From Candidatus Binatia bacterium (GTDB taxonomy: Bacteria; Desulfobacterota; Binatia; Bin18): a DNA stretch of 64,000 bases. The notes beneath the pieces were generated by a model, which made no database searches, had not been told where the DNA came from, and was given only the letters and a program-made list of their open reading frames with translations. Location: contig OY761159.2 in assembly GCA_963664395.2 (NCBI GenBank), forward strand, positions 1,152,001-1,216,000, in the 5' to 3' direction. Position 1 is the stretch's first letter, and each line of letters starts with the position of its first letter. Below are positions 54,472 to 60,145 of this stretch, piece after piece. Made by a program: the position numbers and the translations under genes.

Positions 54472-55710
54472 ATGACCTCCGGCCACCGGCAATACCCCCC
54501 GGCGCGTATTGAGTCCCTGAAAGTGCAGAATTTCCGAGCGCTACGGGAAGTCGAGTTTAAGAACATCACGCCCATGACCGTGCTGCTTGGCCCCAATGGC
54601 AGCGGCAAGTCTACGGTTTTTGACGTATTCGCGTTTCTGGCCGAGTGCTTTGAGTTGGGGCTGCGCCGGGCTTGGGATAAGCGCGGGCGGGCCAGGGAAC
54701 TCAAGACGCGCGGCGCACAGGGACCGGTAACCATCGAGATCAAGTATCGTGAGCCCGGCTACCCGCTCATCACCTATCATCTGGCCGTTGATGAACGCGA
54801 CCGCGCGCCGGTGGTCGTGGAAGAGTGGCTGCGCTGGAAGCGGGGGAGTCGTGGGCAACCGTTTCGTTTCCTGGAATACGCACGCGGCCAAGGCCGAGCG
54901 GTTAGTGGCGAGATGCCGGACAAACAAGACAGGAGGGTAGATATTTCGCTCAAATCCCCTGACTTGCTGGCAGTCAACGCGCTTGGACAGTTCGCCGCGC
55001 ACCCGCGAGTAGCCGCGCTACGGGATTTTATCACCGGCTGGCATGTGTCCTATCTGTCGGCCGACAGCGCACGCGGGCAACCCGAGGCGGGCCCCCAGGA
55101 ACGGCTGAGCAAAACGGGCGACAATCTCGCCAACGTCATTCAATACCTGGCCGAACAGCATCCGGAACGCCTGGAGAGCATCTTCAGCGTCCTGCGCCGG
55201 CGGGTGCCGCGTATTGAGCGCGTGCTGACCGAGACTATGCCCGACGGGCGCTTGCTGTTGCAGATCAAGGACGCCCCCTTCAACAATCCGGTGCTGGCCC
55301 GTTTCGCTTCCGACGGCACCCTGAAGATGCTGGCCTATCTGGTTCTGCTATACGACCCCGAACCGCCGCCCTTTATTGGCATCGAAGAACCGGAGAACTT
55401 CCTGCACCCACGGTTGCTGTCCGAACTAGCCGAGGAATGCCGCGCGGCCAGTGAGCGCACGCAGTTGCTCGTGACTACCCATTCGCCATTTTTCCTGAAC
55501 GCTTTGCAGCCCAAAGAAGCGCGGGTCCTGTGGCGTGATGAGCAGGGCTATACACAGTCGCAACACGTGCCGGATTTACCTACGGTACGTGACTTCCTGG
55601 AGCACGGCGGGCTGCTGGGGAACTTGTGGATGGAGGGATATTTCGGCGTGGGTGATCCGCTGGTCAATCAAGGTGCGCCGACCGCTCCTCCACGAGGACC
55701 CGAGCGGTGA
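54472..55710 (+). CDS. AAA_21 ABC-type ATPase
   Basis: [33 protein letters not shown]. Confidence 0.9.
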
Positions 55711-56333
55711 TTGCCAGACACTTGGAATTGCTCGTTGAAGAGCCCTCAATGGAAGTGTTTCTGCGAGAACTCCTGCCGCGCATTTTGTCCGCAGACTGTG
55801 ATTTCGAGATTCATCCGTTTCAGGGAAAACTCGACCTGCTAGGCAATTTAGGAAATCGTTTGAGGGGCTACGCGCAGTGGTTGCCCGACGACTGGCGCAT
55901 CCTTGTGATAGTGGACCGCGATGACGATGACTGCCGGCAACTCAAGCAGCGGCTAGAAGATGTAGCGTCAGGAGCGAATCTACGCACGAGATCGCAAGCG
56001 GGAGGGCGGCCTTGGCAATTGGTCAATCGCGTTGTCATTGAAGAGTTGGAGGCGTGGTATTTCGGTGACTGGGAGGCTGTGCGTAGCGCCTATCCAAGAG
56101 TATCGCCGACCGTTCCGAATCAAAGCCGTTATCGCAATCCTGACTCAGTCCAGGGTGGAACCTGGGAGGCGTTCGAGCGAATACTGAAAGGGCGTGGGTA
56201 TTTCAGGACAGGATTACGCAAGATGGAAGCAGCGCGGACCGTTGCCGCCTATATTGACCCGGCGCGGAACCGTTCGCACAGCTTTACAAAATTCCGCGAC
56301 GCTCTCGTCGAGGCGACATCTTGTCAGCAGTGA
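55707..56333 (+). CDS. DUF4276 family (TOPRIM-like) protein
   Basis: [36 protein letters not shown]; GTGA overlap with the ATPase. Confidence 0.85.
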
Positions 56334-56374: not shown

Positions 56375-57439
56375 ATGGACTTCGGAGTTGGCTTTCAGTC
56401 GCATATTCACAACGGATGGAAACACGCCCTGCTGGCCGAGCAGATGGGGTTTACGCATGCCTGGTTTGTGGACTCGCAGTTGATCACCTCGGATGTGTAT
56501 GCCTGCATGACCCTGGCCGCCGCGCATACAACAACAATTCGACTCGGAACCGGCGTCACCATTGTGGGGACGCGGATTCCACCCGTCATTGCGCATTCTA
56601 TTGCCACCATCAATCAGCTTGCGCCCGGTCGGGTGATTCTCGGTCTGGGCACCGGTCATACGGCCTGGCGGACCATGGGCATGCCACCGGTTTCGCTCGC
56701 AGAGTTCCGGCATGCGGTCGAGGTTTGCCAGGGTCTGCTCCGGGGTGAGACTGTCCCCTATCACGAGCGCGGCCGGCAGGGCCGGATTCGGTTCATGGAT
56801 GTCGAACACGGCTATATCAACGTGCATGAGCGCATCCCCATCTATCTGGCGGCCTCGCATCCCAAGGCTCAGGCGCTGGCCGGTGAGCTGGGCGACGGCC
56901 TGTTGACCCTGAGCCTGCTCTCGCCCGAGTCGCTCAGCCGTAATCTGGCGTCGGTCGCAAGGGGCTGGGAGAGCCGGGCCGGCGGGAAACCGGCCGACTT
57001 CGGTGTGGTCACGCTCGGCATCTCCTGCGTGTTGCAACCCGGCGAGGCCGTGAATAGTCCGCGTGTGTTGTCGCGGGTCGGCCCGCGCATTGCGGTGTCC
57101 CTGCACTATGCCTATGAAGTCGCCAAACAGGGCAAAGCGGTGCCGCCTTTTTTACAGCCCTTTCTGACTCCGGACTACCAGCGCTACCTGGACGACCGCT
57201 GGGAAGACATTCATGCCACGCATTCACGCTTTCTGCATCCGGGCGAAGAAAAATTCATCACCCCCGAGACCATTCGGGCCATGAGCCTGACCGGCTCGCG
57301 CGATGAAATTCTCGAACGCCTGGTTCAGCTTGAAGCCGCCGGACTCACCCAGATGGTTGTCTCACCCCCGTGGGGCCTGGTGGAGGAAAGCATCGTGGAG
57401 TTCGCCCGAGAGATTATCGGACCGTATAGAAACCGATAA
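56375..57439 (+). CDS. LLM-class flavin-dependent oxidoreductase
   Basis: AEQMGF..AW..DSQ, RLGTGV, PGRVILGLGTG, AGELGDG. Confidence 0.9.
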   Translation: MDFGVGFQSHIHNGWKHALLAEQMGFTHAWFVDSQLITSDVYACMTLAAAHTTTIRLGTGVTIVGTRIPPVIAHSIATINQLAPGRVILGLGTGHTAWRTMGMPPVSLAEFRHAVEVCQGLLRGETVPYHERGRQGRIRFMDVEHGYINVHERIPIYLAASHPKAQALAGELGDGLLTLSLLSPESLSRNLASVARGWESRAGGKPADFGVVTLGISCVLQPGEAVNSPRVLSRVGPRIAVSLHYAYEVAKQGKAVPPFLQPFLTPDYQRYLDDRWEDIHATHSRFLHPGEEKFITPETIRAMSLTGSRDEILERLVQLEAAGLTQMVVSPPWGLVEESIVEFAREIIGPYRNR

Positions 57440-57529
57440 CCGAGCGGACATCACTTGATTTCGCCGAGGGGTTTGGAATCAGGGGCTGAAACCGCTAGGC
57501 TGAGAGCCACTCTCTCGGAAGGACAAAAT

Positions 57530-58378
57530 ATGGATACGACGCAGGGCGAAGCAGTACGCTATGAACAGGTCGGACATATAGGTTGGCTGCGGCTCAACCG
57601 GGCGGACAAGCTGAACGCCATGACGCCCCAGATGTGGCAGGAGTTACGGGAACTCGGCCATACCCTGTCTACCGAAGCGCACGCGCGCGAAAACCAGTTA
57701 CGGGTGCTGGTCGTGATTGGCGAAGGCCGCGCGTTCTCGACCGGCATCGATACTGCGGCCTTTGGCGGCACGGCCTTTGGCGGACACGAACGCGAGCCCG
57801 TGCCCGAGGTGGTGGCCGACGATGATCCCATGGTGACCATTATCCAGGGCTTTCAGGAGGCATTCACCTGGCTTGAAGAAGCTCCCTATCCGACCATTGC
57901 CGCGGTCCGAGGCTATGCTTTAGGCGCGGGCATGCAGATGGCGCTGGCCTGCGATATCCGGGTGGTCGCCCGCGGCAGCCGGCTGGGCTTGCTGGAGCAT
58001 CGCTACGGCCTCATCCCCGACCTGGGCGGCACCCAACGCCTGCCCCGGCTGGTCGGCAGCGGCAAGGCCAAGGAACTCATCTTCACCGCCCAGCAGATTG
58101 AGGCGGAAGAGGCATATCGGATCGGTCTGGCCGAACAGCTCGTTGACGACGAGGCATTGGAGGCGACCGTGACGAGCCTGGCGGAACAACTGGCCAGCCA
58201 GCCGCCGCTGGCCGTGCGCGCTGCCAAGCGGGCGATTGATGCCAGTCAACATCTTTCAGTCCGTGACGGATTACTGCTGGAAGCCAAGAGCCAGGCCGTC
58301 TGCATTCGCTCCCAGGATGCCAAAGAAGCGGTTCGAGCGTTTATGGAAAAACGGATGCCCCAGTACTCAGGACAGTAA
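57530..58378 (+). CDS. Enoyl-CoA hydratase/isomerase
   Basis: LNRADKLNA, AFSTGID, GYALGAG, PDLGGTQRLPRLVG. Confidence 0.92.
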   Translation: MDTTQGEAVRYEQVGHIGWLRLNRADKLNAMTPQMWQELRELGHTLSTEAHARENQLRVLVVIGEGRAFSTGIDTAAFGGTAFGGHEREPVPEVVADDDPMVTIIQGFQEAFTWLEEAPYPTIAAVRGYALGAGMQMALACDIRVVARGSRLGLLEHRYGLIPDLGGTQRLPRLVGSGKAKELIFTAQQIEAEEAYRIGLAEQLVDDEALEATVTSLAEQLASQPPLAVRAAKRAIDASQHLSVRDGLLLEAKSQAVCIRSQDAKEAVRAFMEKRMPQYSGQ

Positions 58379-58410
58379 TCGTACTCTGGACAGGAAAAGG
58401 AGGCGGGACA

Positions 58411-59232
58411 ATGACAGACCACGGCTATGCCCGACCGGATATGCTGGCAGAGACCCAATGGCTCGCGGCGCATCTCCAGGACGATAACCTGCGAATCGTC
58501 GATTGTGATAATCGTGAAGCCTACCGTCGCGCCCATATTCCGGGCGCGATTCCCGTGCGCGGCCATCACTATCTCAAGGAGAAAGAAGGCGCAGCGCATA
58601 TCATGGGTCCGGACCAGTTTGCGCAGACCATGGGTGAGATGGGCATTGGGGATGACACGCTGGTGATTGCCTATGATGGCTTCAGCGGTCTGTACGCTAC
58701 CCGCTTCTGGTGGGCGCTGCACTATTACGGCCACACCAATGCCAGAGTGTTGAACGGCGGCTGGGAGGCCTGGCTGGCCGAGGGGCGGTCCGTGACAAAC
58801 GCCTCGTCCCGTCCGGCCAAGGCGAGCTTTACGCCCCAGGCCAATGAGGACCTGATCGCCCGCTGGGAACAGGTCCAGGCGGCCATTGCCTCTGATAGCG
58901 TGATTCTCGATGTGCGCTCGGATGCGGAGTGGAGCGGCGAAAATGCCCGTGGCACCAAGCGTGGCGGGCGGATTCCCGGCGCGGTCCATCTCGAATGGCT
59001 CAACTATATTGACCCCAAGACAAAGAAGTTCAAACCCGCGGACGAACTCCGCCCCCTGTTTGAGCAGGTCGGGGTCAGACCCGAGTGTGAGGTCGTCACC
59101 TATTGACAGGGCGGCATCCGTGCGGCGCACGGATTGTTCACCCTGCGGCTGCTCGGTTTTGACAAGGTGCGCAATTACGATGCCTCCTGGGCCGAATGGG
59201 GCAATCGCGAGGATCTCCCACTGGAGAAGTAG
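58411..59232 (+). CDS. Two-domain rhodanese/3-mercaptopyruvate sulfurtransferase with in-frame UGA (probable selenocysteine) at the catalytic position, 273 aa
   Basis: HIPGA, LNGG..AW, DVRS..E, GRIPGA, then VVTY-TGA(59104-59106)-QGGIRAAH...[11 protein letters not shown]...TAG; the rhodanese C-terminal signature lies after the UGA. Confidence 0.85.
59107..59145 (+). promoter_or_regulatory. Putative bacterial SECIS element
   Basis: CAGGG...ATCCGTGC-GGC-GCACGGAT...CCCTG hairpin directly after the UGA; G-initiated apical loop about 17 nt downstream. Confidence 0.7.
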
Positions 59233-59251
59233 GCACGCTGCGTGTCTTCAT

Positions 59252-60145
59252 ATGACTGGATACAGACAACCGCTGTGGCTCCTGGCTGTTCTCCTCATCT
59301 GCTTTTTTCTCTCCAGCCAGGTTTGTAGCGCTCAGCCTGCGGCTGAGTCCGAACCACACGGCAGCCTGCTCATACGGACTCCGGGAGAGCAAGACCACCA
59401 AGACCGGTCGGGGGAGGTCTCGGCCACAGTTTATAGCCTCGAACCCGAGACGCTCGTTGCTCGGGCGACCTTGGGCACACCCGTCTCTCTGCCACCTGGG
59501 TCCTACCGGGTTGAACTCGATGTTCTCGGCGGAACGGTTTCACGCGAGCGTGTCCTGGTACGAGCCGGCCGGACAAGTACGGTCATTCTCAGCGAAGTCG
59601 CGGTCCTCCAGGTCAACGTGCTGGACAAAAAGGGGCAGGATATCGGCTTGGGCGTTGAGGTCTACGACGGTGTTTCAAACGAGCTGCTCGGAGAATTCCT
59701 GAGCGGAGAACGCATCCTGGCTCAACCCGGTCTGGTTGATGTCAAGGTCGCCGTCCCACCCCAGAGCCAGTGGTGGCGCGCTGTTGAGCTTCTGCGCGGC
59801 GGACTACGGGAACTGACGCTGCGCGAGCGCGTTCGGGGCGAACTCCGGGTTCATCCCAGGCTGGCCGGAAAAGATGTGAGTCCGCTGACCCACGTCATTA
59901 TTTACGCAGCCGGGACGCAAAAAGAGATTGCCCGTAGCGAGCCTGGTCAGAAACATCGCTTTTCCCTGGAGACCGGCAGCTACGATGTGTTTGTGGCCAA
60001 CCCGACCGGACGCGGGAAGCCGTTCGTGCTGGAACGCGCGGAGGTCCCGGATGAAACCCCGGTCGAAAAAGACGTTCATCTGGACCAACTGAATGGACCG
60101 TCCGACCAGCCCCCGCCACCCTCTTCGGAAACGCACGCCCTCTAA
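59252..60145 (+). CDS. Secreted hypothetical protein with repeated beta-sandwich segments
   Basis: Signal peptide; LPPGSYRVEL, PGLVDVKV and LETGSYDVFV repeats. Confidence 0.65.
   Translation: MTGYRQPLWLLAVLLICFFLSSQVCSAQPAAESEPHGSLLIRTPGEQDHQDRSGEVSATVYSLEPETLVARATLGTPVSLPPGSYRVELDVLGGTVSRERVLVRAGRTSTVILSEVAVLQVNVLDKKGQDIGLGVEVYDGVSNELLGEFLSGERILAQPGLVDVKVAVPPQSQWWRAVELLRGGLRELTLRERVRGELRVHPRLAGKDVSPLTHVIIYAAGTQKEIARSEPGQKHRFSLETGSYDVFVANPTGRGKPFVLERAEVPDETPVEKDVHLDQLNGPSDQPPPPSSETHAL

Follow-up and report, generated by a model that had tools for sequence, protein, structure and literature searches.

A tandem-domain rhodanese gene of Candidatus Binatia with an in-frame UGA at its catalytic position, very probably read as selenocysteine

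Within a 64,000-nucleotide (nt) stretch of Candidatus Binatia DNA (hereafter the window; G000:C1:1152001-1216000 of the 5.04-Mb assembly GCA_963664395.2), positions 58411–59232 very probably constitute one gene encoding a 273-residue tandem-domain rhodanese, of the thiosulfate/persulfide sulfurtransferase type, with selenocysteine (Sec, U) in place of cysteine (Cys) at the catalytic position. We put the probability of this reading at roughly 93%. The recoding signature around an in-frame UGA, the Sec machinery of the genome, the rhodanese fold and the placement of the UGA at the catalytic position are shown by the analysis.

Reading frame, fold and relatives

The program-made list of open reading frames (ORFs) ends this gene early: its entry at 58411–59106 (+) has 231 amino acids and closes with CEVVTY, followed by TGA (59104–59106). 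Read through that TGA, the frame runs on for 41 further codons up to a TAG. A preliminary description, made by a model from the letters of the window, had claimed that the frame continues past VVTY to a TAG ending at 59232, and translation with TGA as U bore this out. The resulting 273-residue protein matches the Pfam Rhodanese family in two stretches with 127.8 bits.

An AlphaFold2 (AF2) model built on a protein alignment of homologues (A1) has a mean predicted local distance difference test score (pLDDT) of 90 and a predicted template modelling score (pTM) of 0.91. In this model U232 sits between strand 228–231 and helix 236–247, with the loop QGGI, and the part after the UGA also supplies strand 253–255 and helix 260–264. 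Residues 232–235, U-Q-G-G, fit the UxxG motif in the C-terminal catalytic loop of tandem-rhodanese selenoproteins. In the N-terminal domain, strand 84–88 (VIAYD) is followed by GFSGLYA and then by helix 94–105; because the loop after that strand has no Cys, this domain is, as far as the model tells, presumably non-catalytic. The protein has what defines a tandem thiosulfate/3-mercaptopyruvate sulfurtransferase (TST/MST): both domains adopt the rhodanese fold, and the C-terminal one alone holds the catalytic residue.

Structural comparison placed the model close to solved Cys enzymes. The nearest solved relative, the Thermus thermophilus rhodanese 1UAR, gave a Foldseek template modelling (TM) score of 0.92 at 34% identity (phmmer E = 4.6e-46), and its Cys is aligned to U232 (YCRIAERS versus YUQGGIRA). 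TM scores of 0.82–0.91 were obtained for mycobacterial CysA2/CysA3/SseA, Azotobacter vinelandii RhdA, bovine and human TST, and Escherichia coli SseA.

A search over 5.8 billion proteins returned 3700 matches, of which the best 120 clusters were examined. Seventy of these 120 end right before the TGA, after 231–232 residues (69 with ...TY, one with ...LY). The other 50 are full-length; 39 of them have a C in the motif [TA][YH]-x-Q[GA]G[IV]R and 11 lie outside this pattern. In alignment A1 the TGA position coincides with the Cys of the full-length homologues, so the earlier placement of the UGA at the catalytic Cys of the rhodanese loop agrees with both the homologues and 1UAR. The 70 short clusters likewise confirm the expectation that standard pipelines would call the gene truncated. 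They come from several sources and amount to a systematic annotation error, with the protein stored as stumps of 231–232 residues that have no active site; metabolic readings of these Binatia and Dehalococcoidia genomes therefore miss a sulfurtransferase that is predicted to be functional.

The same codon was compared at the DNA level in two sets of loci. The first set, from species-representative genomes, has 79 members, mostly titled Candidatus Binatia; the codon aligned to residue 232 is TGA in 44, TGC in 27 and TGT in 5, while GGG, AGC and GCC occur in a single locus apiece. The second set, also of 79 loci, came from metagenomes scanned with the Cys form P0004 as seed and has TGA in 51, TGC in 19 and TGT in 2, the remaining 7 being partial. 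DNA for the close full-length Cys proteins P0004, P0006 and P0007 was not among these metagenome loci, in which the closest Cys form is L124. The TGA loci of both sets (44 + 51) span Binatota, Chloroflexota and others.

In a quick maximum-likelihood tree of 76 rows (partial loci L055, L060, L073 and L075 excluded; Sec column treated as a gap), 40 Sec rows and 4 Cys rows form a supported clade of 44 (Shimodaira–Hasegawa-like approximate likelihood ratio test (SH-aLRT), 96). Nested in it is a Binatia clade (SH-aLRT 99) with Sec in 34/34 rows. The four Cys rows within the Sec clade are from Dehalococcoidia/Chloroflexota and stand beside Sec rows. A clade in which Sec and Cys versions occur naturally as neighbours lends itself well to the question of what advantage Sec brings to the chemistry of sulfur transfer.

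Could the TGA simply have arisen from a Cys codon (TGC/TGT), through a nonsense mutation or an error of sequencing or assembly? The chance of this is close to negligible: although one transversion makes TGA from either codon and Cys forms exist in relatives, TGA recurs in 44 + 51 independent loci and in every row of the Binatia clade, and the frame downstream of it is intact and conserved. Independent assemblies also agree. Part or all of the stretch is contained in 20 public runs from nine studies, and contigs (not raw reads) were compared for four runs from four studies (X3, X5, X9 and X16), two of which are metatranscriptome libraries. Contigs cover 59104–59106 in all four runs, and no letter other than those of TGA was reported there.

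The sequence beyond the UGA is conserved as protein. Across the 41 post-UGA codons of the 44 Sec rows, amino acids are near-fixed at many positions and are spelled with two to six synonymous codons; Leu+13 has five, and Gly+17, Ala+26, Ser+27, Ala+29 and Gly+32 have four each. As judged from these alignments, the region is under purifying selection at the protein level, a pattern that marks translation continuing beyond the UGA.

The hairpin after the UGA

One short segment escapes this synonymous freedom. At codons +4 to +9 (I-R-A-A-H-G) third-position entropy falls to 0–0.16 bit, compared with 0.4–1.8 bit at the other degenerate (non-Trp) codons, and the frozen codons are CGT in 44/44 rows, GCG in 43/44, GCG in 42/42, CAC in 43/44 and GGA in 41/42. 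These codons, the only exception downstream of the UGA, are the ones that form the stem UCCGUGC/GCACGGA of a putative selenocysteine insertion sequence (SECIS). Cys forms spell the same amino acids with different codons, for example ATC CGC GCG GCG CAG GGC in L058.

RNAalifold run on 45 TGA rows retained precisely the seven pairs of this core. All seven are pairable in 43/45 of the rows, the others being L062 with six and L076 with three, whereas no Cys row has an intact core stem (0/32; maximum 5/7 pairs). Fifty metagenome TGA rows extend far enough to be scored, and of these 43 have seven pairs, six have six and one has five, so that across genomes and metagenomes the hairpin is frozen in 86/95 judged TGA rows. 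TGA and hairpin are hence conserved together in relatives, with Cys in more distant ones. Compensatory changes occur at stem pair 2, where L066 has A-U and L070 G-C in place of C-G; a G-U wobble is present in L063.

The preliminary description had drawn the element more generously, as a perfect 8-bp stem with a G-initiated loop inside a CAGGG/CCCTG outer stem. All of this is present in the window, where ATCCGTGC (59116–59123) pairs with GCACGGAT (59127–59134) and CAGGG (59107–59111) with CCCTG (59141–59145), and the placement of a SECIS just 3′ of the UGA stands. As conserved features the 8-bp stem and the outer stem were rejected: only the 7-bp stem and the GGC loop are kept among relatives, the eighth pair (16–34) being retained in 12/41 distinct rows and the outer helix being 79% paired.

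Published constraints for bacterial SECIS elements (bSECIS) ask for a loop of 3–9 nt, an upper stem of 4–16 bp, a G within the first two loop positions, a distance of 16–37 nt from the UGA and a minimum free energy (MFE) of at most −7.5 kcal/mol, according to the legend of Fig. 2 in PMC13188914. The Binatia hairpin agrees with every constraint listed there, with a 3-nt loop that begins GG, a 7-bp stem, a spacing of 17 nt and an MFE of −9.9 kcal/mol for the core or −21.2 kcal/mol for the whole. With the closing pair opened, the loop reads C-GG-C-G, which is the N1-G-[G|U]-N-N2 pattern given in the same legend. A scan of 58900–59400 against Rfam (E ≤ 1) found no SECIS family and a single chance microRNA match (19.3 bits versus a gathering score of 70); as Rfam is without a model for such bacterial SECIS, this null is uninformative either way.

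The public assemblies leave a trace of the same segment. Summed contig depth rises 50- to 200-fold at 59077–59150, assemblies break at 59104 and 59124, and many contigs match only a piece of about 45 nt around the UGA and hairpin and diverge on both sides. Because the contigs diverge around it, the UGA–hairpin segment must be near-identical in many different rhodanese genes of the communities; a shared piece of this kind fits a frozen SECIS and fragments de Bruijn assemblies of the gene.

Two loci depart from the common hairpin. Metagenome locus L124 has TGT at the Sec codon and still keeps 6/7 stem pairs (CAC to CAT, GGA to GCA); its TGT form is 79% identical to the query over the C-terminal part. 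It may be a Sec form that has lately switched to Cys and whose SECIS is decaying, in which case the hairpin would be a 'fossil' SECIS left after the switch. At L076:3664-3723, from a Planctomycetota metagenome-assembled genome (MAG), TGA occupies the same catalytic codon without the common hairpin, and a short CGUC-GGU-GACG stem-loop lies about 20 nt after the UGA. Possibly this is a Sec form of independent origin that has a SECIS to itself.

Conservation on this scale bears on whether the ribosome mostly stops at the UGA. If termination were dominant, the gene would mostly yield a 231-residue protein without the catalytic loop, and Sec insertion would be minor or conditional, for example on selenium being available. 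Purifying selection on 41 codons and a hairpin frozen in 86/95 rows would be senseless if the downstream part were rarely made. Moreover, with Sec at the strand/helix junction of the model, the 231-residue product would be without the active-site loop and about one third of the catalytic domain, namely helix 236–247, strand 253–255 and helix 260–264. Bacterial Sec insertion does compete with release factor 2, and public gene calls do stop at the TGA in the 70 short clusters, but database truncations reflect gene-caller behaviour and are no evidence of protein. We consider dominant termination very improbable.

Sec machinery, proposed mechanism and genomic context

The genome holds a complete set of genes for Sec insertion, in keeping with what the preliminary description had expected of a selenoprotein. 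tRNA-Sec was found by Rfam (66.7 bits versus a cut-off of 47) and by ARAGORN (tRNA-SeC, anticodon tca), and selA (596 bits), selB (390 bits) and selD (316 bits) each score over their curated cut-offs. tRNA-Sec and selA adjoin at G000:C1:2573200-2575065, about 440 nt apart on opposite strands, with selB and selD elsewhere on the chromosome. The selD match (G000:C1 ~4506291-4507208; locus L018:1390-3657, −) is the C-terminal part of a 755-amino-acid ORF with no in-frame stop, which opens, over its first 320 residues, with a pyridine-nucleotide-disulfide oxidoreductase domain and is thus an oxidoreductase–SelD fusion.

Other genes have in-frame TGA codons as well. The UGSC family (NF041046) has six matches in the genome, five of them over the cut-off, each with exactly one in-frame TGA (G000:C1:3355259, 2259312, 3806016, 4734867, 383361 and 2429102). 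Their hairpins have apical loops beginning about 17–19 nt after the UGA, and 3/6 have a CGUGC/GCACG upper stem in common with the rhodanese SECIS. By the look of it, this genome encodes many selenoproteins. It also encodes two ordinary Cys paralogues that are 40% and 38% identical to the Sec-rhodanese.

With this equipment present, a non-Sec reading of the UGA, whether by Cys-tRNA(Sec), by near-cognate Trp or Cys read-through or by a lineage-wide reassignment of TGA, is very improbable. In other systems UGA is known to be read through, and Cys can be inserted at it when selenium is scarce. Here, however, a complete selA/selB/selD/tRNA-Sec set and a hairpin that fits the bSECIS model are found in the same genome, and Trp at the position of the catalytic nucleophile would kill the enzyme. 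TGA is also an ordinary stop in the window, where it closes 14/33 stop-to-stop frames of at least 300 codons, and global TGA reassignment was rejected on that count.

Several points weigh against the assignment of a Sec-rhodanese or against parts of its support. That Sec is actually inserted at UGA-232, as opposed to termination in vivo, is something we infer from sequence. Cys forms are nested in the Sec clade (4/44 rows, plus L124), and Sec would therefore be dispensable for the function of the fold. The hairpin region is no more stable than its shuffles (68 nt, −22.8 kcal/mol, z = −0.76, 46/200 shuffles equal or better); in this G+C-rich DNA folding energy was dropped as evidence for the hairpin, and because the energy is unremarkable it is the comparative evidence that decides the question. 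Covariation is thin, with two compensatory events at one pair and one wobble; 2/5 pairs changed on both sides come from L076, whose hairpin differs; and since stems are near-identical in most rows, shuffle statistics of covariation chiefly reflect conservation. The contigs from metatranscriptome libraries may derive from contaminating DNA, so they demonstrate neither a transcript nor transcript ends, and contigs in general do not speak to expression level or read-through. Last, an NCBIfam scan found no model at its cut-off, the best being NF008557 (3-MST/SseA equivalog) with 140.7 bits versus 250. The corresponding loop of 3-MST is CG[ST]GVT. Given the score below the NF008557 cut-off and the UQGGIR loop, the protein is not filed as an SseA/3-MST orthologue, and that candidate was rejected.

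For the Sec-rhodanese the following course of events can be proposed. When the ribosome reaches UGA-232, SelB carrying Sec-tRNA(Sec) would dock on the messenger RNA hairpin that starts 10 nt downstream; Sec would be inserted and 41 more codons translated. Those codons would supply the active-site loop U-Q-G-G-I-R and the helix after it, together with the strand and helix that complete the catalytic domain. If the protein works as Cys rhodaneses do, its U232 selenolate would then take sulfane sulfur (or selenium) from a donor, and an enzyme-bound Se-S(H) or Se-Se(H) intermediate would form and be passed to an acceptor. In the part of PMC9369223 available to us, rhodaneses are described as working by double displacement, in which the catalytic Cys bears the enzyme persulfide, and bovine TST as able to carry selenium as a perselenide.

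A bolder proposal is that the Sec-rhodanese is a dedicated chalcogen carrier and not a generic sulfurtransferase, its Se-S or Se-Se adduct feeding a specific pathway. One candidate is the delivery of reactive selenium to the unusual oxidoreductase–SelD fusion, in which case a selenoprotein would serve selenoprotein synthesis; the other is service to the conserved F420-type operon of Binatia with its luciferase-like and crotonase genes. A hairpin near-invariant across Binatota and Chloroflexota would then mark a gene moving between phyla with its own SECIS. We hold the proposal to be doubtful, and a role in selenium delivery is speculation.

The genes around the rhodanese are included in the table below. 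Four genes, for a luciferase-like (LLM) oxidoreductase, a crotonase, the rhodanese and a protein of unassigned family, run head to tail with gaps of 15–32 nt. In a survey of the genome loci with flanks of up to 3 kb, LLM lies upstream in 25/44 TGA loci and the crotonase in 18/44; neither is present in the other 35 loci. The LLM gene is possibly an operon partner of the Sec-rhodanese. Its best NCBIfam matches are F420-dependent LLM models (Mer-like, TIGR03842), all below cut-off, and none is to sulfonate monooxygenases. The preliminary description had taken the LLM and enoyl-CoA hydratase (ECH) genes as a hint of organosulfur catabolism, for which we found no support; the idea of an organosulfur operon was rejected, the LLM matching F420-type models, below cut-off, and not SsuD-like ones, and LLM/ECH being absent from the flanks of up to 3 kb around Chloroflexota and other Sec or Cys forms. 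The LLM/ECH gene order is a trait of Binatia-type loci and is not by itself indicative of function.

Further observations concern the flanks. The ORF downstream of the rhodanese has a signal-peptide-like N-terminus (MTGYRQPLWLLAVLLICFFLSSQVCSA...), and its position is kept in most Binatia relatives, with 46–89% identity. Upstream, at 54472–56333 (+), an AAA_21 ATPase (412 amino acids) and a DUF4276 protein (208 amino acids) overlap by 4 nt and correspond to HEC-01A/HEC-01B, a candidate defence pair in PADLOC, with 534 and 289 bits. In the 3-kb flanks of relatives, such a pair lies upstream of LLM only at L026, L032, L035 and L036, so it may be a variable insertion.

Seven records that carry the rhodanese gene are titled 'uncultured Enterobacteriaceae bacterium' (L038, L040, L041, L047, L048, L049 and L073). 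The first six fall inside the Binatia clade of the tree, for which L073 is too short, and the Binatia gene order recurs in L038, L040, L041, L049 and L073. These MAG titles are probably taxonomic mislabels.

Features of the Sec-rhodanese locus, in window coordinates
Feature	Position	Strand	Basis and remarks
LLM oxidoreductase, F420-type by best matches	56375..57439	+	Pfam Bac_luciferase; NCBIfam F420 LLM models, all below cut-off
Enoyl-CoA hydratase/crotonase family protein, start codon uncertain	57455..58378	+	Pfam ECH_1, 164.5 bits; ends 32 nt before the rhodanese ATG
Shine–Dalgarno-like AGGAGG, 7 nt 5′ of the ATG	58398..58403	+	Read from sequence
Complete coding sequence of the predicted Sec-rhodanese	58411..59232	+	273 residues, U232, stop TAG 59230–59232; translation with TGA = U
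N-terminal rhodanese domain, about residues 15–123	58453..58779	+	Best Pfam stretch, 15–123
C-terminal catalytic rhodanese domain, about residues 150–268	58858..59214	+	Approximate bounds from AF2 model and 1UAR alignment
Predicted Sec codon UGA (residue 232), opposite the catalytic Cys of homologues	59104..59106	+	Read from sequence; homologue alignment
SECIS region as in the window, outer CAGGG/CCCTG and inner stem-loop	59107..59145	+	MFE −21.2 kcal/mol
Conserved SECIS core, 7-bp stem UCCGUGC/GCACGGA, loop GGC (59124–59126), 17 nt after the UGA	59117..59133	+	−9.9 kcal/mol; RNAalifold
Downstream ORF, about 297 amino acids, hydrophobic N-terminus	59252..60145	+	Starts 19 nt 3′ of the TAG with ATG; matches no family in Pfam or NCBIfam

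Relation to known rhodaneses and selenoproteins

The type of protein is not new. A 2005 study of the Sargasso Sea lists a 'Rhodanese-related sulfurtransferase' (COG2897) selenoprotein with three sequences in its Table 1 and a SECIS in its Fig. 3 (PMC1088965). Two rows of the 2008 table of the Global Ocean Sampling (GOS) possibly correspond to it, 'Rhodanase-related sulfurtransferase' (cd01449) and 'Sulfurtransferase COG2897' (PMC2398784), and reviews list Sec-rhodaneses as COG2897/SseA (PMC9312934) or, with the motif UxxG, as 'form 4' (PMC13188914). Going by the portions of these sources available to us, the tandem-rhodanese selenoprotein has been catalogued since 2005, and the Binatia gene is a further member of a known family; the preliminary description was right that Sec-rhodaneses had been reported before, which limits the novelty. 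In the available parts of this literature they are listed as predicted and no biochemical test of a Sec-rhodanese is apparent, no search having been aimed at such tests. A literature search on Binatia and selenocysteine returned, among the matches listed, nothing on this clade; in PMC9999580 the word occurs in the reference list only. The value of the present case lies mainly in annotation correction and in material for Sec-versus-Cys enzymology: a rhodanese with Sec as nucleophile would, as read from sequence, be a persulfide carrier in which selenium stands in for sulfur.

With the COG2897/SseA-type selenoproteins, as far as the accessible descriptions go, the Binatia protein shares the tandem PF00581 domains, Sec for the catalytic Cys, the motif U-x-x-G (here U-Q-G-G) and a SECIS right after the UGA. 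It differs in setting, the published entries described there being computational listings, mostly from marine metagenomes, whereas the present gene is part of an extensive clade of Candidatus Binatia. Its assignment to COG2897 'form 4' follows the COG/Pfam label and the UxxG motif as given in those descriptions, not a sequence comparison with the published examples.

Among Cys tandem rhodaneses (1UAR; Mycobacterium tuberculosis CysA2/CysA3/SseA, that is 3HWI, 3AAX and 3HZU; A. vinelandii RhdA, 1E0C; bovine TST) the two-domain fold is the same. In 1UAR, too, the catalytic residue comes after a strand and is the first of six loop residues that lead into a helix, with an Arg at +5 (C-R-I-A-E-R versus U-Q-G-G-I-R). 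The differences are Sec for Cys, a QGGIR loop specific to the Sec-rhodanese clade and an activity that is, for the Binatia protein, predicted only.

The remaining Sec-rhodaneses known from the available descriptions, the single-domain forms 1–3 (including NF041203 'rhodanese_LYCAU', CxU) and form 5 (the TsoB rhodanese/DsbD fusion), share a Sec-bearing rhodanese domain with it. Architecture and Sec position differ, however, and the Binatia protein is not a member of these forms; NF041203 matches weakly, on the N-terminal domain, with 29.4 bits versus a cut-off of 115.

Compared with the bacterial SECIS model (of the bSECISearch type, with E. coli fdhF as prototype) in its available description, the Binatia element is likewise a stem-loop within the coding region after the UGA, with a small loop that starts G-G at 17 nt. 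Its loop is at the 3-nt minimum, and we do not claim that it resembles the E. coli element in sequence.

Last, selenium has been placed in a rhodanese active site before. The perselenide form of selenium-substituted bovine rhodanese was proposed to hand reactive selenium to selenophosphate synthesis (Ogasawara, Lacourciere and Stadtman 2001, as cited in the accessible part of PMC9369223). Both are rhodanese active sites with selenium, but in the bovine enzyme, on that account, it is a transient adduct on Cys, whereas in the Binatia protein it is predicted to be Sec within the polypeptide itself.

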